Origin: a virus
Lineage: Duplodnaviria; Heunggongvirae; Uroviricota; Caudoviricetes
Length of the DNA: 64,000 nt
IMG/VR virus record: IMGVR_UViG_3300021399_000109
Span: 94,710 to 158,709 of that record
Direction: 5' to 3' (one strand)
In this document: positions 13,535 through 25,811 of the stretch, piece after piece
How the letters are laid out: each line of letters opens with the position of its first letter
How positions within the stretch are numbered: the stretch's first letter is position 1
Position numbers and translations under genes: made by a program
Notes under the pieces: model-generated
What the model saw: only the letters and a program-made list of their open reading frames with translations
Database searches by the model: none
What the model was told of the DNA's origin: nothing

Positions 13535-14059
13535 ATGAAAAACTTAACAAAACTGTTTAACGAGTGCATTGCGGATTGTGATTCTTTAGGTATTAAGTAT
13601 GGACGTATTACTAATGTATCTGTTAACACAAGAGCAAAGAGAAGATGGGGGCAGACAAAAACACATAGACCCTATAAATATAGTACATGCCATAAAGATT
13701 ATACTTTTGATATTAGCATCTCCAATCGTCTGTTAGAAGATGATGTTGAAGACATGATGGCGAAGAATACTATAATGCACGAGATTCTTCATACTGTTGA
13801 AGATTGTCAGAATCATGGTGATAAATGGAAAGCTATGGCAGATAAAGTGAATCGGGCATATGGGTATAATGTCAAAAGATGTACATCTTCTGAAGAAAAG
13901 GGAATTGAGCCTGTAAAAATTACTCACAATAAAAACTATGTTATTACATGCCAGAAATGCGGTGCAACAGTAATTAGACATCGAATGTCTGATTTTGTTA
14001 AGTATCCCTATTGCTATTCTCATAAAGATTGTGGTGGATACTTTATGAGAGTTCGATAA
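13535..14059 (+). CDS. SprT-like zinc metalloprotease domain protein
   Basis: HEILH (HExxH) motif plus C-terminal CQKCG...CYSHKDCGG zinc ribbon. Confidence 0.5.
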   Translation: MKNLTKLFNECIADCDSLGIKYGRITNVSVNTRAKRRWGQTKTHRPYKYSTCHKDYTFDISISNRLLEDDVEDMMAKNTIMHEILHTVEDCQNHGDKWKAMADKVNRAYGYNVKRCTSSEEKGIEPVKITHNKNYVITCQKCGATVIRHRMSDFVKYPYCYSHKDCGGYFMRVR

Positions 14060-17806: not shown

Positions 17807-17878
17807 AGGGCTATAGCCAAGCGGTAAGGCACAGGACTTTGACTCCTGCATTCGTTGGTTCGAATCCAACTAGCCCTG
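17807..17878 (+). tRNA. tRNA-Gln (anticodon TTG)
   Basis: Cloverleaf: acceptor AGGGCTA/TAGCCCT, anticodon stem CAGGA/TCCTG with loop CTTTGAC, T-arm GTTGG-TTCGAAT-CCAAC. Confidence 0.8.
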
Positions 17879-18632
17879 TTTATAGGGTGGATTTCACATC
17901 CTTTAAGATAAACGTAGTAATACGGATAAAGCAATGACCATCCATACAGGTTGTTGCGACTTATAAAAAGAAATTTTTATGAGTTCACTGGAAAATCAAT
18001 ATGGCAGACATCCTATCTAAACCTGAGAGCCAATCGGTGTAAGGCATGGTAGGTTGGGAATCTTGAAATAGGTTCTAAATAATAATCGCAGAAATGCGTG
18101 GATTGCCAATTGCTTTTAGGTACAACTGTCGCAAACGGAAGTGCTTAACTGATTGTGATTTCATATCTTAAATCGAAAGATAGGTATTGTATTACAAATT
18201 ATACTCGCAAAGTGTAAAGGATTGCGGTGAGTGGGCTGTACTCAAAAGGTATAGATGCTCAAACGTATGCCCCGTAATTCATAAAGTGTGGAACTTCAAT
18301 GCTAATGGAGATAAGAAGATAGTGTGAGCAAAAGTGCATACGGCTTACAACTGAAAACTGACTTATTCATCTGAAATATGATGACATGTGGAACTCGCAA
18401 AGTGAAACATGAAGGAGTACAAGTAGATGCAACTCTAACAGCCTGCAAGCTGTGAATCTCGCAAGGAAGAATGTGTTGAACGGAAACTTATGAAGGTGTA
18501 AGCAGTAGTTCTGCCTGTGACCAAAGCAGGTGTCAGTTCATAGCTACAGATTAATCATCTGTGTGACTGGCTTGTTCCAACGCAAGTAAATGCTATGAAA
18601 ATAGGGTCAAAAGTCTCAGCCCTAAAATTTAA
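17879..18632 (+). ncRNA. large structured noncoding RNA candidate (GOLLD/ROOL-class ornate large RNA) between tRNA-Gln and tRNA-Glu
   Basis: About 750 nt with no plausible ORF. GC is visibly higher (about 40%) than the flanks (about 25%). Many local and long-range complementary segments. Repeated ACUCGCAAAGUG-like blocks at about 18203, 18392 and 18464. Flanked by tRNAs and downstream of tandem strong promoters, as reported for GOLLD and ROOL RNAs in phages. Confidence 0.5.
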
Positions 18633-18704
18633 GGTCGGTTAGTCAAGTGGTTAAGACACAAGGTTTTCATCCTTGGAACAGGAGTTCAATTCTCCTACCG
18701 ACTA
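18633..18704 (+). tRNA. tRNA-Glu (anticodon TTC)
   Basis: Acceptor GGTCGGT/ACCGACT, anticodon stem CAAGG/CCTTG with loop TTTTCAT, T-arm AGGAG-TTCAATT-CTCCT. Confidence 0.75.
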
Positions 18705-18757
18705 TTTTCATGTTTGGTTAAAATTAGTTTATTAATAGAGAAAGGGGAAAACAAAAC

Positions 18758-18940
18758 ATGAGTAAGAAAGAGAAAAAGCGAAAAATTAAACTTTATTTTA
18801 AAGACGGAAAAACTGATACTATTCCGCAAAAACTTTGGGATGATTATGAAGTAAATAATGACCTCTTTGTGGTTAAAAAGAATGGTGAGTGGATAGCTTT
18901 TTATAAAATGGAAACTATTGACTGCATGGTAGTCGGTTAA
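18758..18940 (+). CDS. hypothetical small protein
   Basis: RBS AGAAAGGGGAAAACAAAACATG. Lies between tRNA-Glu and the next ORF. Confidence 0.4.
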   Translation: MSKKEKKRKIKLYFKDGKTDTIPQKLWDDYEVNNDLFVVKKNGEWIAFYKMETIDCMVVG

Positions 18941-19004
18941 AATTTTAAAACAGTAAAAGTTAAATCAATTATTAATTAAATATTATCAAACAAAGGAGAA
19001 AAAA

Positions 19005-19646
19005 ATGAAAACAGAAACGATGACAGTACACGAAGCACTTTCAGAAATTAAGGTAGCAGGTAAAAGAATTACATCTACTCTTTTTGAGATGGATGTAGTA
19101 ACAGCTAATAGAAAGAATGCCACTAAAATTAACGGTATTGAACCAGAAAAGTTCAATGCACAAGCAAAGGCAGATTTTCAGTCTGTTACAGACCTTTGGG
19201 CAAGACTTACTGCCATGAAAGCGGCAATTGCTACTTACAATGCTAGTCAGAAAATTACCGTAGGTGATAAGGAATATACAATTGCAGAAGCAATTTATAT
19301 GAAAGAATATGGTATGCCCCTGAAGCAGACTTTTGTTAATACGCTGAATAAGCAGTATCAGAGTGCTGTAAATAAGGTAACAACGGAAAACTCAGACTCT
19401 AAGCTTGGTGCTACTGCTGAAAGACTTGCAACTGCAAGCTTTGGTTCTAAGGATAAGGCTGATGCTGTAGAAATGGAAAAGTTCATTACTACATATAAGG
19501 AAAATAATCAGTTTATTCTGATTGACCCTATTAATGTAAAGGCGATTATTACAGAACTTCAGTCTGAAATTGATACCTTTGAAGCTAAAGTTGATTCTGC
19601 AATTCAGATTGCAAATGCAACACATACAATTACCATTGAATATTAA
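19005..19646 (+). CDS. hypothetical protein (213 aa) inside the tRNA cluster
   Basis: RBS CAAAGGAGAAAAAAATG. Codon usage is more GC-rich than neighbouring genes. Confidence 0.55.
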   Translation: MKTETMTVHEALSEIKVAGKRITSTLFEMDVVTANRKNATKINGIEPEKFNAQAKADFQSVTDLWARLTAMKAAIATYNASQKITVGDKEYTIAEAIYMKEYGMPLKQTFVNTLNKQYQSAVNKVTTENSDSKLGATAERLATASFGSKDKADAVEMEKFITTYKENNQFILIDPINVKAIITELQSEIDTFEAKVDSAIQIANATHTITIEY

Positions 19647-20124
19647 TGGGTATTAAAATATAATAAAAAGGAAACTTTTAATATATATACCCATTAGTGA
19701 CGTAAGCCATAAATAAATGTCTCTTCTTTCTTTTTGAACGGATTAGAATGAAGTAAATAAGTTAAATAAATCCGTTAGCAAGTAAGCTTATATAGACTTA
19801 AAATCTATAAAAAGCAATGGACTTTTAATCCATTTTTACAAAAAAATTAGGGTTGTTTTGTGGTTCTTATCAAAGAAAACAGTTTAGTAATAGATTAGGA
19901 AGATAAGAATGCAAAACGTAAACTAGTTATTAATTACTTGTTATTGACTAATAATTATTGATTAAAGATTATTTATTATTTCTTTATTATTAATTATTGT
20001 CTATTTATTATGGGAACTATTTTTTTCCCATTTAATAATTATAGAATCTACGAAGAAGGTTCTGTGCTGTTAGACATTTTGTAAGCCTTGGCTTCGTCCC
20101 GTAGCAGTCACTAATGGGTATTGT

Positions 20125-20214
20125 GCTAAAGTGGCAGAGTGGTTAAATGCACCTGATTGCTAATCAGGCGGTCACAAATAATGTGGCTCATAGGTTCGAA
20201 TCCTATCTTTAGCG
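20125..20214 (+). tRNA. tRNA-Ser (anticodon GCT), class II with long variable arm
   Basis: Acceptor GCTAAAG/CTTTAGC, anticodon stem CCTGA/TCAGG with loop TTGCTAA, long variable arm, T-arm ATAGG-TTCGAAT-CCTAT. Confidence 0.8.
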
Positions 20215-20493
20215 TTACACATTTTATTTATTTAAAATGCTTATTCTACATAAAGAGTTTGTAGACGATGAATTTGGCATCGTAAAAATCTAGCACACTG
20301 TTACAGTAACAGGATAAACTAACTGAGTGGCTAGACACTTAAAACCAAACAATATAGAACAAAAATTGGAGAGGTTTTTATGAGCCTTTGTACCTGTACA
20401 AGACTTAATTTTTATCTTGAGATGAACTGAAAGCTATAGATGAAAGGGAATCAAAAATAGATTGCTTGGCATGTGCCGTTGAACATGCTAATT

Positions 20494-20567
20494 GGTCTGT
20501 TAGTTCAGTTGGTAGTAACACATGTCTGTTAAACATGGGGTCGTAGGTTCAAGTCCTACACAGACCG
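20494..20567 (+). tRNA. tRNA-Asn (anticodon GTT)
   Basis: Acceptor GGTCTGT/ACAGACC, anticodon stem CATGT/ACATG with loop CTGTTAA, T-loop TTCAAGT. Confidence 0.75.
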
Positions 20568-20726
20568 TTCCTGCTGACATTTTTAATATCTGTCAGTGTT
20601 TTGAATATTTTTGTTCATTTCCTTTCTTTGTAGGCTTGGGGAGAAGCCCCTGTAAGTAGTTGATAGTTAAACAATAACCTAAAGTAAATTAAAAAAGGCA
20701 AATATAAATAATAACAAATAATATAA

Positions 20727-20800
20727 TGGGCATTAGCACAACGGTATGAGTGCAGGTGGCTTATAACCATCCGATAAGAGTTCGACTCTCTTATGCCCGA
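20727..20800 (+). tRNA. tRNA-Ile (anticodon TAT; decodes AUA)
   Basis: Acceptor TGGGCAT/ATGCCCG, D-stem GCAC/GTGC, anticodon stem GGTGG/CCATC with loop CTTATAA (TAT at 20762-20764), T-arm AAGAG-TTCGACT-CTCTT. Confidence 0.65.
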
Positions 20801-20805
20801 TTTTA

Positions 20806-20891
20806 GCTTGTATGGCAGAGTTGGCTTAATGCACCAGTCTTGAAAACTGGCAATCCAATTGGATTCGTAGGTTCAAATCCTACTGCAAGCG
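20806..20891 (+). tRNA. tRNA-Ser (anticodon TGA), class II
   Basis: Near-paralog of the Ser(GCT) gene. Anticodon stem CCAGT/ACTGG with loop CTTGAAA, long variable arm, T-loop TTCAAAT. Confidence 0.8.
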
Positions 20892-20921
20892 TTAACTATT
20901 TTTATTTAAGAGGATGGGGAA

Positions 20922-21296
20922 ATGAAGATTAATTGGTTAAGTGAAACATTACTTACTTATGAAGAAGCAATGGAATTATTAGAGCATTCTCATAAGAAAC
21001 GCTTAGAAATGGAAGATAAAAATAAATGGGACGCATATGTAAATGATTTTACATTCTACACATTTCTTAATGATACTTATGGATATATGCTTGATGAGGT
21101 TAAAAAAGAAATTGATATTAATAAGAAAAGTTATTATCCGAAAGTAAAAGAATTATTAGATTGGGAAATATTTTTAAATAAAAGTGATAAATTAATGGAG
21201 GATATTTTAAGAGATAAACCAGAAGGAAAAGATAATATTTGGGAGATTGTAGAAGATTGGTGGAAAATGTTATTTAAATTATTATATGATTGTTAA
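20922..21296 (+). CDS. hypothetical protein (124 aa) flanked by tRNA 3' end repeats
   Basis: RBS AAGAGGATGGGGAAATG. Flanked by tRNA-Ser(TGA) 3' end and a 16-bp copy of that end. Confidence 0.5.
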   Translation: MKINWLSETLLTYEEAMELLEHSHKKRLEMEDKNKWDAYVNDFTFYTFLNDTYGYMLDEVKKEIDINKKSYYPKVKELLDWEIFLNKSDKLMEDILRDKPEGKDNIWEIVEDWWKMLFKLLYDC

Positions 21297-21351
21297 TTTA
21301 AATTATTAATTTATCTACATAGGTTCAAATCCTGTTATTTCTCATTAATTT

Positions 21352-21422
21352 AGGTTGGTAGTACAATGGTAGTACAACGGTCTCCAAAACCGAAAATAGG
21401 GGTTCGATTCCTCTCCTTCCTG
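21352..21422 (+). tRNA. tRNA-Trp-like (anticodon CCA) with imperfect acceptor stem (possible pseudo-tRNA)
   Basis: D-arm GTAC-AATGGTA-GTAC, anticodon stem ACGGT/ACCGA with loop CTCCAAA, T-arm AGGGG-TTCGATT-CCTCT. Acceptor AGGTTGG/CCTTCCT has two central U-U mismatches. Confidence 0.5.
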
Positions 21423-21585
21423 CGCCCCCAGTGATAGGAATGGGTAACTTACTCTATCCGTGTGATATTTGATTCTTTTAACTACGACAACGTAAGAATT
21501 TGGTTAATCTTTTTACTGTTTTCTACGTCAGATAAGTTCACCAAGAAAACAGTTTTTAATTTTATAAGGATAATGTTTTTTATCA

Positions 21586-21660
21586 CGGAATGTAGCAAAG
21601 TGGTTTTTCTGCACACGACTTTTAATCGTGTTTACGTGGGTTCGAATCCCACCATTCCGA
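21586..21660 (+). tRNA. tRNA-Lys (anticodon TTT)
   Basis: Acceptor CGGAATG/CATTCCG, anticodon stem CACGA/TCGTG with loop CTTTTAA, T-arm GTGGG-TTCGAAT-CCCAC. Confidence 0.8.
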
Positions 21661-21662
21661 TT

Positions 21663-21750
21663 AGCCTCATAGTATAATGGAAGACGTTTTAAGCATGTAG
21701 TACACCCTATGGTTTTTGGGAGGTGCAGGTTCGATTCCTGCTGAAGGCTG
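21663..21750 (+). pseudogene. tRNA-like element / degenerate class II tRNA (anticodon not assignable)
   Basis: Good T-arm GCAGG-TTCGATT-CCTGC and a partial acceptor (AGCCT...AGGCT). I could not fold a consistent D-arm or anticodon arm by eye. Confidence 0.3.
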
Positions 21751-21768
21751 TAAGAAAGGAATTAAAAA

Positions 21769-21975
21769 ATGAAAAAAGAAGATTTGGATAAACGTATTTA
21801 TGATGTAGAACCTAATGAGATTTGTACGATGACTTATCGTGAGTATATAGATTGGGGATATGCCGAATTAGGTTATTCAAAAAAAACGGTTGAACAAATG
21901 TTAGACTTAGATAAAATGTCGGAAGATATGTTAAATGATGTATTAGAAGAACTTGATTGGCTATTGAGCAAATAG
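21769..21975 (+). CDS. hypothetical small protein
   Basis: RBS AAGAAAGGAATTAAAAAATG. Confidence 0.4.
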   Translation: MKKEDLDKRIYDVEPNEICTMTYREYIDWGYAELGYSKKTVEQMLDLDKMSEDMLNDVLEELDWLLSK

Positions 21976-21988
21976 GTAAATATATAAA

Positions 21989-22333
21989 ATGTATTATAAA
22001 GATTTTCAAGAAAAAATAATTACAATAATAGATAATGATTATATATTAAATTATAATAATCATACTTTTGATAATAGTTTTATGGAAGTTAATTCTTATG
22101 AAATGTGGCAACATATGAATAAGGATAAACTAAAAATAATTGGAATTAGTTTTAATCCGCCTTATGGTCATTATAGTTATAAAGACGTAGCTTTTGTATT
22201 TAAAGATATAAACAATGAAATATTTTGGATACATCTTACAAGAATCAGTTGGGAACATTATGTTCTTAGTGCCTTTGGAAAAGAAGACGGAGATAAAATT
22301 ATTACTGAAATATATAATAAATATAAAGTATAA
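21989..22333 (+). CDS. hypothetical protein
   Basis: ORF follows closely after the previous gene. Confidence 0.4.
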   Translation: MYYKDFQEKIITIIDNDYILNYNNHTFDNSFMEVNSYEMWQHMNKDKLKIIGISFNPPYGHYSYKDVAFVFKDINNEIFWIHLTRISWEHYVLSAFGKEDGDKIITEIYNKYKV

Positions 22334-22355
22334 AATATAAAAGGAGATAAATGAT

Positions 22356-22583
22356 ATGGAATTTAAAAGAGACATGAGTAAAAACAAAAAGAAAGCACCG
22401 ACAGATTATAAAGTTAATGATAGAGTTTTGGTGTTAACTGGTGATAATAAAGATAAAGTTGGTGTAGTAAAAGGACATTATGATGCTAATCTTATCTTAG
22501 AATTTAAGGGGAACGATGAAATGCCGACTTATACAGATAAAGTTCATTATGCCGAAGTAATCAGATGGTTTGATTGGAGTTAA
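22356..22583 (+). CDS. hypothetical protein
   Basis: RBS AAAAGGAGATAAATGATATG. Confidence 0.45.
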   Translation: MEFKRDMSKNKKKAPTDYKVNDRVLVLTGDNKDKVGVVKGHYDANLILEFKGNDEMPTYTDKVHYAEVIRWFDWS

Positions 22584-22617
22584 GTGAAATAGATAAAAAA
22601 ATTTTTTAAAAAAAAGC

Positions 22618-22646
22618 TTGACAAATTGTTAATTATGTGTTAGTAT
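22618..22646 (+). promoter_or_regulatory. sigma70-type promoter upstream of tRNA(TAA) and the TnpB/Cas12f-like gene
   Basis: TTGACA, 17-bp spacer, TAGTAT. Followed by hairpin TGTCAGATGAAGCGAAACATCTGACA at 22654-22679. Confidence 0.55.
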
Positions 22647-22685
22647 TAATAGTGTCAGATGAAGCGAAACATCTGACAATTATAT

Positions 22686-22761
22686 GCTCCCGTAGCCCAA
22701 TTAGGCAGTAGGCACAGGACTTAAAATCCTTTCAGTATGGGTTCGAATCCCATCGGGAGTA
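22686..22761 (+). tRNA. tRNA with anticodon TAA (Leu, UUA codon) but short variable arm; discriminator A
   Basis: Acceptor GCTCCCG/CGGGAGT, anticodon stem CAGGA/TCCTT with loop CTTAAAA, T-arm ATGGG-TTCGAAT-CCCAT. Preceded by promoter 22618-22646 and a hairpin. Confidence 0.6.
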
Positions 22762-22828
22762 TTTAGCATTAAAAGAATGTATAAATTAAATGCTAATTGA
22801 ATTTATTTTTATCACACGATAAAAACAA

Positions 22829-22849
22829 GTTTGTACAATCTGTACAAAC
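22829..22849. promoter_or_regulatory. perfect 9-3-9 palindrome GTTTGTACA-ATC-TGTACAAAC (operator-like) 43 bp upstream of the nuclease gene
   Basis: The two arms are exact reverse complements. Occurs once in the window. Confidence 0.4.
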
Positions 22850-22891
22850 AAGTTTATAACAACAAAAACAAAAAGCAAAGAAAGGAGCAAT

Positions 22892-24247
22892 ATGTCAAAC
22901 ACACAAATTCTAACACGTAAATTTCAGATTTTTCCAGTAGGAGACAAAGAAGAGATTAATCGAGTTTATCAGTATATTAGAGATTGTCAGTATGTACAAA
23001 ACAAAGCTTATAATATTCTTATTAGTAATGTTTATTCTGCTATTATTTCTGGTAAATCAAAAGAAGAAATTAATCTGATTTATAAAAAAGGTGGAAGAAA
23101 ACCTAAAGAGAATAATCCAGATTATAGTCTTTATAATTATAATGATTTTAAAGTACCTGTAGGATTAACAATAATAGGGGCACTTCCTCAAACAGTAAAA
23201 AATGATTTAAAAACTGCTCAAAAGGCAGGATTATTTAAAGGTAACTCTGCTTTACCTAATAGAAGAAGAACGGCTAGTTTAAATATTCAACCTATATATG
23301 TTAGATTAAGAGATATTAATTTACGTAACCCTAAAATAACTTCTAAAACTGGTATTTATCATACCTATTCTTCTTATAATGATTTTTTAGATAATTTATA
23401 TTCTAAAAGAGAATTAGATATTTATCTTGCATTTGCGAATAATATTACTTTTAAATTTGTGTTAGGAAATCCTTATAAATCCTATCAAGATAGAAATATT
23501 TTACAGCATATTTTTGAAGAAGATTATTTAGTTAAGGGAAGTTCAATCTCTTTTGATAAGACTAATAAAAAAATTATGTTAAATCTGAGTATGGAAATAC
23601 CTAAAAAAGAGATTGAATTAAAAGAGGATGTCGTAGTAGGAGTTGATGTAGGATTAGCCATTCCTGCTGTTTGTGGATTAAATATAAATTCATATGCGAG
23701 AGAATACATTGGTTCTAAGGATGATTTTTTACGAGTTAGAACACAGATTTCTAATGAATGTAAAAGAGTTCAGAAGAATTTAAAAATGATTAAAGGTGGT
23801 CATGGACGTAAGAAAAAAATGAAACCTTTAGATAGATTCAGATTAAAAGAAAAAAATTTTGTTCAGACCTACAATCATATGGTCAGTAAACGTGTTGTTG
23901 ACTTTGCCGTAAAAAATCATGCAAAATATATTAATCTAGAAAATCTTAAAGGATATGATGCCAATATATTTATTTTAAGAAATTGGTCATATCATCAGCT
24001 TCAGCGGTATATTAAATACAAAGCTGAAAAATACGGAATAGAAACAAGAATGATTGACCCTTATCATACATCTCAGATTTGTTCTTGCTGTGGTCATTGG
24101 GAAGAAGGTCAAAGAATTAACCAATCAACTTTTATTTGTAAAAATCCTGAATGTAAAAATTTTGGAATAAAAATAAACGCTGATTTTAATGCTTCAAGGA
24201 ATATAGCATTATCTACAAATTTTATATCTGCCGATTCTGCCGAATAA
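22892..24247 (+). CDS. compact RNA-guided-nuclease-like protein (TnpB/Cas12f-like, 451 aa) with split RuvC and zinc finger
   Basis: RuvC-I VVVGVDVGLAIP. RuvC-II YINLENL. Zinc finger CSCCGHWEEGQRINQSTFICKNPEC. RuvC-III INADFNASRNIA. RBS AAAGAAAGGAGCAATATG. A CRISPR-like array lies 185 bp downstream. Confidence 0.8.
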   Translation: MSNTQILTRKFQIFPVGDKEEINRVYQYIRDCQYVQNKAYNILISNVYSAIISGKSKEEINLIYKKGGRKPKENNPDYSLYNYNDFKVPVGLTIIGALPQTVKNDLKTAQKAGLFKGNSALPNRRRTASLNIQPIYVRLRDINLRNPKITSKTGIYHTYSSYNDFLDNLYSKRELDIYLAFANNITFKFVLGNPYKSYQDRNILQHIFEEDYLVKGSSISFDKTNKKIMLNLSMEIPKKEIELKEDVVVGVDVGLAIPAVCGLNINSYAREYIGSKDDFLRVRTQISNECKRVQKNLKMIKGGHGRKKKMKPLDRFRLKEKNFVQTYNHMVSKRVVDFAVKNHAKYINLENLKGYDANIFILRNWSYHQLQRYIKYKAEKYGIETRMIDPYHTSQICSCCGHWEEGQRINQSTFICKNPECKNFGIKINADFNASRNIALSTNFISADSAE

Positions 24248-24370
24248 AATCGGCAAATATAAATAAATTATATAGAAATATATACGGCTTGCTTTGAAGC
24301 CGAAAGGTGAGGTTATTTTTATAATATAAAATTTATATTAGATATTTTTAATACTTAATATAAATAAAAT

Positions 24371-24397
24371 GACACTCACTAAAAACCTTGTAAAAAT
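24371..24397. ncRNA. candidate anti-repeat (tracrRNA-like) segment between the nuclease gene and the array
   Basis: ACTAAAAACCTTGTAAAAATAA contains AACCTTGT, complementary to ACAAGGTT of the repeat. It lies in a 185-bp ORF-free spacer that also has hairpins at 24230-24254 and 24285-24302. Confidence 0.3.
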
Positions 24398-24431
24398 AAA
24401 ATTATAAAAAATATATAATAATTTATTAAGG

Positions 24432-24730
24432 CTTTATAGTCTATAAAAATAATAAGGTTACAAAGGGATGATGCCATCTTCATGGCTTCTGGACTGGTTT
24501 TATAACCTATAAAAATAACAAGGTTACAAAGGAAGTGAGTCTTATGAATCTCAGGGCATAATGTTTTGTAGCTTATAAAAATAACAAGGTTACGAAGTAC
24601 AAATGGCTTAATATCACCATTTGTGAACAGTTTTATAGCCTATAAGAATAACAAGGTTACGAAGGTTATCCAGAATATATCCTTTGTATGTCTTAGTTTT
24701 ATAACCTATAAAAATAATAAGGTTACGAAA
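24432..24730. CRISPR. CRISPR-like mini-array: 5 repeats of 34 nt (consensus TTTTATAACCTATAAAAATAACAAGGTTACGAAG) and 4 unique spacers of 32-33 nt
   Basis: Repeats at 24432-24465, 24498-24531, 24564-24597, 24631-24664 and 24697-24730, with 1-5 substitutions each. Spacers at 24466-24497, 24532-24563, 24598-24630 and 24665-24696 are unrelated to each other. The repeat has an internal hairpin TTTTATA/TATAAAA. The R1 end is the most degenerate. An A-rich leader-like tract lies at 24731-24790. Confidence 0.75.
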
Positions 24731-24811
24731 AATTAATAAAAAATAAATAAACAAAAATAAAAAACGAAATAAATAAACATTAATCATTACAGAAAGGAGG
24801 TCACTTATGAG

Positions 24812-24997
24812 GTGGAATGCAAATATTGTCATACAGTTTTTAATGAAACATCCTTAAATCCACAACCTAAAATATGGTGGGATGATAAAGGTACAGAAAG
24901 CGTCAAATTACTAAAGTGTCCTTTCTGTGATAAAATACAGGTAATAAAACGTGAACCTGTAAAAAATGTGAATTATGATAATAGATATTATAAATAA
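24812..24997 (+). CDS. small zinc-ribbon protein (61 aa)
   Basis: CKYCH...CPFCD motifs. GTG start 11 nt after AAAGGAGG. Lies immediately downstream of the array. Confidence 0.4.
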   Translation: MECKYCHTVFNETSLNPQPKIWWDDKGTESVKLLKCPFCDKIQVIKREPVKNVNYDNRYYK

Positions 24998-25033
24998 AAT
25001 AGATATTATAAATAAAATAAAAAGGAGTTAAAA

Positions 25034-25717
25034 ATGACTACAGGAACAGCTTTAAATAATGTATTTACTACAACAAGTGATATATTTACTACAACTACAA
25101 TTAAGGATTATATAAATGATTGTATAATTAATACAACTACACCATTTAGTACGGAAGAATTTATATATGGATATAATCCAGATTTAAAACCTAGAATGTT
25201 TTATCAAGCTAAAAGAAAACAATATAAAGCAATTAGGTTTGGAAAGAATAAAGAAAATTCAATATACATTATGCCTGAATTTTCTGATGTTAAAATTATT
25301 AGAAATAAGGAAAATTCCCCTATTGGTGTAAAAATTAGTTTTACAGATGGTACTGAACAGAAAGCTATTTGTATGCCAGATGATACTTTTAGTTTAGAAC
25401 ATGGTATTACCATTTGTTTATTTAAAAAAATGCTTACTTGTGGTTGTTATATTGATGAACAGTATGTAACAGGTGTTTATAATAAACTTGTTAAACATGC
25501 TATTAAAGTTAGAGAAAACAGACTTAAAGCAGAAGAAGAAGCTAAGAAAGCTAAAGAAGAAGCCAAGCTTCAGGAACAGCGTTTCCAAGAAAAAAGACGT
25601 AAAACCAAAGCTAAACGTGCAAAACGTGCATCTGAACGCAGAATTAATGAAATGGCTGAAGCTATTCGAAGAAGCGGTATTGTTCCAAACATTGATAAAA
25701 TTGATGATGGAAAGTAA
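25034..25717 (+). CDS. hypothetical protein with Lys/Glu/Arg-rich C-terminal helix
   Basis: RBS AAAAGGAGTTAAAAATG. C-terminal KAEEEAKKAKEEAKLQEQRFQEKRRKTKAKRAKRA. Confidence 0.5.
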   Translation: MTTGTALNNVFTTTSDIFTTTTIKDYINDCIINTTTPFSTEEFIYGYNPDLKPRMFYQAKRKQYKAIRFGKNKENSIYIMPEFSDVKIIRNKENSPIGVKISFTDGTEQKAICMPDDTFSLEHGITICLFKKMLTCGCYIDEQYVTGVYNKLVKHAIKVRENRLKAEEEAKKAKEEAKLQEQRFQEKRRKTKAKRAKRASERRINEMAEAIRRSGIVPNIDKIDDGK

Positions 25718-25726
25718 AAAAAATAC

Positions 25727-25755
25727 TTGACAAAAGAATATATATATGTTACTAT
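25727..25755 (+). promoter_or_regulatory. sigma70-type promoter
   Basis: TTGACA, 17-bp spacer, TACTAT. Confidence 0.55.
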
Positions 25756-25811
25756 ATATATAGTAAATAATAAATCATAGATAATTAATAAAACAAAGGA
25801 GAAACAAAATT

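Follow-up and report, generated by a model that had tools for sequence, protein, structure and literature searches.

The nucleases CnCas12f1, Al3Cas12f and RhCas12f work with a trans-activating CRISPR (clustered regularly interspaced short palindromic repeats) RNA, or tracrRNA, which is encoded between the nuclease gene and the repeat array (PMC13186708; PMC7229846), and the guide RNA sequences of RhCas12f and Al3Cas12f are available from their cryo-EM structures (supplement of PMC13186708). According to a published view, the arrays of type V systems arose from segments of omega-RNA (PMC10691335) and, as described in the citing literature, the right-end element RNA (reRNA) of the transposon-CRISPR intermediates termed TranC is split into a tracrRNA and a CRISPR RNA (crRNA) (Jin et al. 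2025, Cell 188:6283, via PMC13639567, preprint 10.64898/2026.03.27.714800), with phage-borne examples being reported in that preprint. Here we describe a locus of related organization in a virus of the Caudoviricetes (IMG/VR record IMGVR_UViG_3300021399_000109, positions 94,710 to 158,709). In this stretch of 64,000 nucleotides, to which we refer as the window, an interval at positions 24248-24431 separates the gene of a small RuvC nuclease from a CRISPR mini-array. As judged from sequence comparison, the interval very probably encodes the scaffold of a guide RNA with an anti-repeat at positions 24384-24391, whose transcription is predicted. Elements of this kind are already known as tracrRNAs or split omega-RNA scaffolds of nucleases of the Cas12f1 clade, and the present one is borne by a phage.

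Anatomy and conservation of the predicted scaffold

The predicted scaffold is located on the + strand, where it extends from about 24221, and certainly from 24283, to 24391, and it appears to be derived from a TnpB omega-RNA. Its 5' end could reside at either of two proximal hairpins, labelled hp0 and hpX, or at stem 1, with a start 5' of position 24248, within the terminal part of the nuclease ORF, being probable. The features of the locus are the following:

22892-24247, + strand: gene of an RNA-guided nuclease of the TnpB/Cas12f family, 451 amino acids (profile matches, PDB relatives, intact catalytic residues)
24221-24263, + strand: hp0, hairpin whose loop contains the stop codon (16-nucleotide arms at 24221-24236 and 24248-24263, 94% complementary; contained in the minimum free energy (MFE) fold)
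24269-24284, + strand: hpX, small hairpin UAUAUA-GAAA-UAUAUA directly 5' of stem 1 (MFE and centroid folds)
24285-24302, + strand: stem 1, CGGCUU and AAGCCG enclosing a GCUUUG loop (match to covariance model R1)
24303-24306, + strand: AAAG, purine linker joining stem 1 to stem 2 (kept as GAA-R-R in the seed alignment A2 and in validated guide RNAs)
24307-24379, + strand: stem 2, GUGAG-GU ... AC-A-CUCAC with bulged A24374 (R1 match, covariation, MFE fold)
24312-24323, + strand: perfect 12-nucleotide complement of the repeat, GUUAUUUUUAUA, able to pair with repeat nucleotides 12-23 (5' strand of the stem-2 extension)
24380-24383, + strand: UAAA linker leading from stem 2 to the anti-repeat (kept as (U/C)AAA in alignments A2, A3 and A4)
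24384-24391, + strand: anti-repeat AACCUUGU, predicted to pair with repeat nucleotides 22-29, leaving a 7-nucleotide tail ACAAAGG before the spacer
24392-24430, + strand: AT-rich connector from the anti-repeat to the first repeat, ending in TTAAGG (degenerate copy of the family motif TTGAGG)
24431-24731, + strand: CRISPR mini-array of five 36-nucleotide repeats and four spacers of 29-30 nucleotides (repeat detection; gapless alignment to homologous repeats)

The succession of these elements recurs in related loci. The nuclease has 950 homologues at E values of 1e-3 or better, and our comparison covered 80 loci from viral contigs, which are mostly 50-190 kb long and in most cases carry, just 3' of the gene, a mini-array that repeats about every 66 nucleotides, besides about 22 relevant loci from bacterial genomes. 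The recurring downstream order consists of a 6-bp stem with a 6-nucleotide loop, GAA-R-R, GUGAG-NN...NN-A-CUCAC with a bulged A, (U/C)AAA and a complement to the 3' half of the locus's own repeat. The covariance model R1 was seeded with 18 loci, the nucleases of which share 42-60% identity with that of the window (in case of the seed member L101 over residues 175-445 only, 44%), with the close relatives of the window being excluded. When searched over both strands of the window, R1 yields a single significant match (43.3 bits, E 1.7e-9), which occupies positions 24283-24395 of the + strand and carries a 55-nucleotide insertion inside stem 2, and a hit at 13882-13945 (E 3.4) inside a coding region was discarded as chance. 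Over 100 sources, the model returns 211 matches, all on the strand of the nuclease gene, with an array located within 330 nucleotides downstream in 118 of the 150 best matches, and the element is also found after arrays and upstream of genes. A tracrRNA had been proposed for this interval in a reading of the sequence without database searches (the sequence-only reading), and it is this match of a model derived from other loci, on the gene strand and once in the window, that lends support to the candidate. The premise of that proposal, a Cas12f-type effector in need of a tracrRNA, agrees with the use of such an RNA, encoded between gene and array, by the closest solved relatives of the nuclease.

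The interval is free of open reading frames (ORFs), as described earlier, with no ORF of at least 50 amino acids and a single one of at least 20, a minus-strand frame of 34 amino acids that enters the array. The region 24225-24400 folds with an energy of -40.2 kcal/mol (z = -5.5), which is equalled by none of 200 shuffles. Two hairpins had been recognized from the letters and both are present: GCCGATT at 24230-24236 and AATCGGC at 24248-24254 flank the TAA stop codon at 24245-24247, and CGGCTT GCTTTG AAGCCG at 24285-24302 corresponds to stem 1 of the scaffold. The earlier anatomy had thus captured stem 1 and the anti-repeat but overlooked the central conserved stem 2 at 24307-24379, which in the lineage of the window contains an AT-rich self-folding extension (24314-24371).

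Covariation in homologous loci, which had been suggested as a check, is found in both stems and in the pairing of anti-repeat and repeat. In 83 distinct sequences, 96.4% of the cells in stems 1 and 2 are paired, compared to 76.5% in column shuffles and 28-45% in slid registers, percentages that are inflated by the fitting of the underlying alignment A3 to the model. Changes on both sides are observed in 10 of 13 pairs and none of 500 shuffles reaches the observed values, although related sequences can surpass shuffles without any structure. In stem 1, five of six pairs have changed on both sides, with 99% of the cells being paired (alignment A3), whereas the covariation in stem 2 concerns its outer five and inner two pairs. 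Checks in single relatives, which do not depend on this alignment, agree with the pairing. Even among close relatives, an inner G-C pair of stem 2 has been replaced by A-U through compensatory changes on both sides (GU/AC to AU/AU in L008, whose protein is 96% identical) and the same pair by G-U in L009.

The second relationship, between anti-repeat and repeat, had initially been noticed as simple complementarity, and in this form it stands as an observation and fails as evidence. AACCTTGT at 24384-24391 is perfectly reverse complementary to ACAAGGTT, as present in repeats 2-4, but a complement of at least eight nucleotides to the repeat occurs somewhere in the spacer interval in 49% of 2000 dinucleotide shuffles and, by itself, the match is therefore not significant. 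Moreover, in a sliding duplex scan, several other AT-rich sites in its vicinity show an equal or better duplex energy with the repeat, and raw complementarity was for both reasons rejected as evidence for an anti-repeat. AACCTTGT corresponds to the predicted anti-repeat and occupies the position that is fixed in the family, four nucleotides past stem 2. For the comparison across loci, both sides were aligned independently, the repeats of 58 modules on their own, which proceeds without gaps over 36 columns in all modules except for the divergent L056 and L101, and the 16 nucleotides following stem 2 at a fixed offset of the model. In the fixed register, where tracr position 5+k faces repeat position 29-k, 84.1% of the cells are paired in 43 distinct modules, compared to 72.4% upon shuffling and 23-44% when the register is slid. 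Both partners have changed in 56 instances where 23 are expected, a value that is not reached in any of 500 shuffles, and the mean duplex energy amounts to -11.2 kcal/mol for cognate combinations, -7.5 for non-cognate ones and -4.7 for shuffled anti-repeats. In the window, the duplex has an energy of -10.6 kcal/mol (z -5.0) and the own repeat ranks first among 62. This correspondence is illustrated in L011, a relative with a different repeat, where the anti-repeat has changed from CCUUGU to CCUUAU together with a change of the repeat from ACAAGG to AUAGGG, and in L008, where the first anti-repeat base has turned from A to G while keeping a G-U pair with the repeat. A cofold, which had equally been proposed as a check, places the window scaffold, repeat 2 and spacer 2 into exactly the AACCUUGU:ACAAGGUU duplex.

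The same architecture is reflected in guide RNAs of known structure. In a MAFFT alignment, the window scaffold and the guide RNAs of 9NZP and 9NZO coincide column-wise at stem 1, UGAGG, ACUC and the A-rich linker. The RhCas12f guide RNA, ACGGCUG-AUUUAG-CAGCCG-AAGU-CUGAGGG...CC-A-CUCGG, resembles ACGGCUU-GCUUUG-AAGCCG-AAAG-GUGAGGU...AC-A-CUCAC of the window, and CACUCAA-AAAA-UUCACUUGA-GAAA-UCAAGUGAA-UAUCCAAC in the Al3Cas12f single guide RNA (sgRNA) resembles CUCAC-UAAA-AACCUUGU paired to ACAAGGUU-ACAAAGG. L100, a natural locus of Alistipes, contains the validated anti-repeat, TTCACTTGA, and the repeat end TCAAGTGAATATCCAAC at corresponding positions.

Based on these features, we propose a mechanism where hp0, hpX, stem 1, AAAG, stem 2 with its bulged A and AT-rich extension, UAAA and the anti-repeat AACCUUGU would follow each other in the scaffold and where the anti-repeat would pair with nucleotides 22-29 (ACAAGGUU) of each 36-nucleotide repeat. 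The crRNA would continue with the 7-nucleotide tail and the spacer as 3' guide, and the 451-residue RuvC nuclease would bind the resulting two-part RNA to cut DNA that matches the spacer. The RNA itself, with ends close to those given above, would be produced either as a separate tracrRNA or be cut from a common nuclease-scaffold-array transcript, and the complex is predicted to be active.

Several observations weigh against this interpretation, in addition to the two reservations on the pairing statistics of the stems. With 8 bp, the anti-repeat duplex is by complementarity alone indistinguishable from chance, and a scan of the interval revealed no convincing promoter or terminator that would delimit a separate RNA. 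The first and last repeats of the window are degenerate and spacer targets were not found, neither for the array in GenBank phages nor for spacers 1 and 2 in IMG/VR. Finally, each repeat is itself weakly palindromic, with partners at i + j = 37 that in the window involve nucleotides 7-12 and 25-30 (alignment A6), and this internal anti-repeat-like segment could compete with the tracr anti-repeat. Repeat columns 9-12 indeed covary with columns 25-28 (48 double changes vs 26 expected), but the internal pairing comprises 58.9% of the cells vs 53.8% in shuffles, against 84% for the tracr anti-repeat, and we have consequently rejected the palindrome as main partner of repeat nucleotides 22-29.

Alternative explanations of the interval

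Among the alternatives, the one that survives best assumes no separate trans RNA. Scaffold, 39-nucleotide connector and array would constitute one transcript that acts mainly in cis with the first repeat and spacer, akin to an omega-RNA, in which case spacers 2-4 would need processing and re-pairing or be inefficient. We regard this as possible, albeit with considerable doubt. In many relatives, the first repeat follows the anti-repeat at a distance of 1-25 nucleotides, which leaves no space for a terminator and a promoter, many contain a single repeat and would thus give rise to a contiguous guide RNA, and no terminator-like site was found on the + strand 3' of the anti-repeat. Because of this missing terminator and the close first repeat in many relatives, scaffold and array are probably part of one primary transcript that needs processing. 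An action confined to cis would in turn not account for the maintenance, in close relatives, of arrays that comprise 3-5 or more repeats and differ in their spacers, nor for the fit of the window anti-repeat to all five repeats, and it departs from the Cas12f relatives, which work with separate tracrRNA and crRNA (PMC13186708).

A further explanation, which we consider unlikely, assigns the function of the anti-repeat to GUUAUUUUUAUA (24312-24323, complementary to repeat nucleotides 12-23), either alone or together with AACCUUGU, as in two-duplex Cas12f guide RNAs. This segment, GTTATTTTTATA in DNA, had escaped the sequence-only reading and is with 12 nucleotides the longest perfect complement to the repeat in the interval (P about 0.005 in shuffles), and its partner abuts the 22-29 duplex on the repeat. 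However, its location within stem 2 means that it is already engaged in cis pairing, L011, as the nearest relative whose repeat differs, has not conserved it, and the stem-2 extension that contains it is absent from most relatives; the test was also post hoc and concerns a very AT-rich sequence. For its location in stem 2 and its absence in L011, the 12-nucleotide complement was rejected as the real anti-repeat. As an observation in its own right, GTTATTTTTATA and TATAAAAATAAC connect the 5' strand of the stem-2 extension with the central part of the repeat (e.g. 24508-24519) over a length that exceeds that of the anti-repeat.

It also appears improbable that the locus is a decaying relic with a scaffold recognizable by descent in a non-functional system. 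Such decay could be reflected in the degenerate first and last repeats, in the change of TTGAGG to TTAAGG, in a mismatch in hp0 that relatives lack and in the failure to find spacer targets (for the array in GenBank phages, for spacers 1 and 2 in IMG/VR). Conversely, the ORF with the residues for catalysis and zinc binding is intact, as are both stems and the anti-repeat, and the different spacers of relatives suggest turnover. The non-coding scaffold is even more conserved than the ORF, with the 63 nucleotides after the stop being 95% identical in L011, compared to 89.5% for the ORF overall and 79% at its third codon positions. The least probable explanation, a gene terminator followed by an array leader or promoter with no structured helper RNA, would agree with the terminator-like scan result for CGGCTT...AAGCCG (on the minus strand only) and with weak promoter-like matches in the AT-rich part (e.g. 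24369-24397), but can hardly be reconciled with the lack of a + strand T-run after either hairpin, the covariation of stems in a kept order with conserved single-stranded linkers, an anti-repeat that tracks the repeat of each locus, the occurrence of the element away from gene ends and its alignment with solved guide RNAs.

Nuclease, array and genomic setting

The nuclease matches the NCBIfam model guided_TnpB (8.5e-49) and the Pfam model Cas12f1-like_TNB (1.1e-18). Its closest solved relatives are CnCas12f1 (8HR5, E 2.4e-76), Al3Cas12f (9NZO/9NZR, 3.8e-66) and RhCas12f (9NZP, 3.2e-63), and ISDra2 TnpB is a marginal match (E 0.004). The RuvC residues D252, E350 and D431 and a CxxC...CxxxxC zinc finger are intact and invariant in 21 homologues (alignment A1). 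Since the score of 110.9 bits against the NCBIfam Cas12f2 model is below the cut-off of 450 bits, the protein is not a Cas12f2, and the label "Cas12f1-clade / TranC-like" that we apply to it describes a similarity rather than a formal placement. The constituents of a Cas12f1-type (V-F) system are found together in the window, namely a small RuvC protein related to validated Cas12f1 enzymes as effector, an array downstream of its gene on the same strand and, at the level of computation, a tracrRNA (R1 match, covariation of stems and anti-repeat, 9NZP/9NZO alignment). Neither cas1, cas2 and cas4 nor other adaptation genes were found in the neighbourhood of the nuclease gene, which was inspected from about 19.0 to 29.1 kb. 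The element in the interval did not match any Rfam family, and an Rfam scan of 22500-25100 detected, beyond tRNA-Leu, just sub-threshold chance matches to miRNA and sRNA models.

Repeat detection placed five repeats of 36-37 nucleotides at 24430-24731. The repeats of the array start at 24431, 24497, 24563, 24630 and 24696 and align without gaps to the 36-nucleotide repeats of homologous loci. The partner sites of the anti-repeat are located at 24452-59, 24518-25, 24584-91, 24651-58 and 24717-24, and those in repeats 1 and 5 read AUAAGGUU (ATAAGGTT in DNA), which results in a G-U pair. A blastn search of the array against GenBank phages gave just one partial match of 82% (E 0.7). With exact 20-mers in IMG/VR, spacer 2 found no match and spacer 1 a single one, to a GC-rich contig of 1.4 kb, which comprises the first 20 of its 29 nucleotides only and was dismissed as probable chance. 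Because no search gave a credible match, neither a protospacer-adjacent motif nor a target can be derived. The nucleases of L009 and L010 are 97-98% identical to that of the window, yet their arrays contain sets of spacers that differ from that of the window, with one spacer being shared between L009 and L010, and these differences in close relatives suggest spacer turnover. Of 59 non-redundant modules, 44 carry TTGAGG directly ahead of their first repeat, single-repeat modules included. L009 and L010 possess it, and the window carries the form TTAAGG at 24425-24430. The motif might serve as a leader or as a signal for integration, or else belong to the ancestral loop.

The hairpin hp0 may form a 5' stem of the scaffold RNA or else act as an element of processing or stability. 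Hairpins of unrelated sequence that span or directly follow the stop codon recur across the family (mean z -2.1 in 50 non-redundant loci, 54% with z < -2), and hp0 is for this reason probably part of the unit. The scaffold does not require it, since cassettes that follow arrays rather than genes, e.g. L014b, contain no obvious counterpart. In the window, hp0 contains the single mismatch that is absent from relatives. The linker with hpX shows no change in any of the five close relatives (protein identity 90-98%), and hpX may be homologous to the small hairpin (CCCC-UUCG-GGGG) that is found at the same place in the validated Al3Cas12f sgRNA.

The window has a GC content of 28% and is phage-like, encoding among others a tail-fibre protein, an annealing protein that resembles Sak4 and a homing endonuclease. 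The nuclease gene is directly preceded by a cluster of nine tRNA genes (Gln, Glu, Ser x2, Asn, Ile, Trp, Lys, Leu) at 17807-22762, and the tRNA was the sole match of the locus to GenBank phages in blastn. A candidate promoter resides upstream of tRNA-Leu, nuclease gene, scaffold and array:

22618-22646, + strand: sigma-70-like promoter, TTGACA, 17 nucleotides, TG-TAGTAT (best consensus match in the region, 10/12, with TG)

If active as such, it could drive the entire tRNA-nuclease-scaffold-array unit. The promoter lies in a 44-nucleotide block that is found in two near-copies at 22608-22651 and 25717-25760, each with a near-consensus sigma-70 promoter (TTGACA, 17 nucleotides, TG-TAnnAT), which bracket a unit of tRNA-Leu, nuclease gene, scaffold, array and two small ORFs. 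At L011 (2830-3215), whose protein is 90% identical, an insert of several hundred bp with many direct ACACTAAAG and inverted CTTTAGTGT motifs is located between anti-repeat and array, possibly representing a small mobile element or a group of binding sites.

Relatives and comparison with known systems

The relationship of the window RNA to omega-RNA is illustrated in array-less homologues. In L028/L090 from Roseburia (55% identity), stem 1, stem 2 and AAAA are followed by AUUAUGUU, a 5-nucleotide loop, AACAUAAU, ACAAAAG and a unique guide sequence. As judged from this arrangement, the RNA is a contiguous omega-RNA, whose last stem would correspond to anti-repeat plus repeat. The nuclease of the window is 55-60% identical to array-less homologues that are labelled as IS605 OrfB transposase in their sources, one such cluster being found on 33 contigs. 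Exactly one full repeat follows the anti-repeat in L051, L064, L047, L030 and L012:1438-1560, which resembles a natural single guide, and L023:2922-3100 combines a closed last stem, to which a guide of its own belongs, with a separate array about 100 nucleotides further. Arrays of 2-5 repeats are found in most loci. Contiguous omega-RNA, single-repeat and array-type RNAs are all detected by R1, and the single-repeat loci and L023 look like intermediates on the way from omega-RNA to tracrRNA and array. Since the same RNA occurs in array-less relatives, where a loop connects anti-repeat and repeat, we regard the RNA of the window as split omega-RNA of the TranC/Cas12f type, and the graded series in its relatives fits the published origin of type V guides and TranC from a split omega-RNA.

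In many phage loci, two to five cassettes of scaffold plus mini-array surround a single nuclease gene (L078:829-3617, L014, L030, L083, L057, L060). These cassettes are located up- and downstream, all on the gene strand, each with matched anti-repeat and repeat, and at least two are present in 45 of 74 loci among the best 150 R1 matches. The window has one. We consider it rather doubtful that the guide system is modular in an undescribed way, with orthogonal cassettes (up to five in tandem) being repeatedly born from omega-RNA in phage genomes and with the approximately 57-nucleotide stem-2 extension of the window lineage providing, in its 12-nucleotide complement, a second anti-repeat or a switch between closed and crRNA-bound states.

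For the 451-residue phage nuclease, which is within the size range sought for compact genome editors, our analysis offers a concrete guide design that combines the scaffold 24269/24283-24391, a tetraloop, repeat nucleotides 22-36 and a spacer. The family, which mostly resides on large gut-phage contigs, shows stages side by side, from contiguous omega-RNA and single-repeat guides to tracrRNA and array. It thus provides natural examples for the published idea that type V CRISPR systems emerged by splitting and duplicating the guide RNA of TnpB, and nothing known is overturned.

As in systems of the Cas12f1 clade (V-F), the tracrRNA of the window would be located between the gene and a downstream array and contain stem 1, a purine linker, a UGAGG...A-CUC stem 2, an A-rich linker and an anti-repeat that pairs with the 3' part of the repeat, with a short tail preceding the guide. 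The window resembles RhCas12f in its long stem 2, of which the deletion of nucleotides 50-60 abolishes interference in case of RhCas12f (PMC13186708 supplement), and the extension in the window may for this reason matter too. In contrast to RhCas12f, where an extra stem 3 is interposed, the anti-repeat directly follows stem 2, as in Al3Cas12f. The locus differs from Cas12f1-clade systems in its host, a 28%-GC phage rather than a bacterium, and from their guide RNAs in a duplex of just 8 bp and a stem-2 extension of unrelated AT-rich sequence, and the N-terminal half of the nuclease is poorly alignable to solved Cas12f proteins. The resemblance to TranC, which was judged from descriptions in citing papers, comprises a TnpB-sized nuclease, a short array without cas1, cas2 and cas4 nearby, single-repeat intermediates among relatives and a tracrRNA and crRNA that together are homologous to the contiguous omega/reRNA of TnpB relatives. 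With the omega-RNA (reRNA) of IS200/IS605 TnpB, the RNA of the window shares a location at and past the 3' end of the nuclease gene, the use of the strand of that gene and the order of a structured scaffold followed by a 3' guide. Transposon ends and tnpA, as known from IS200/IS605 elements, are not seen at the window locus, and what ultimately distinguishes its RNA from that of TnpB is a last stem that is split and a guide-bearing part that is repeated five times as an array.

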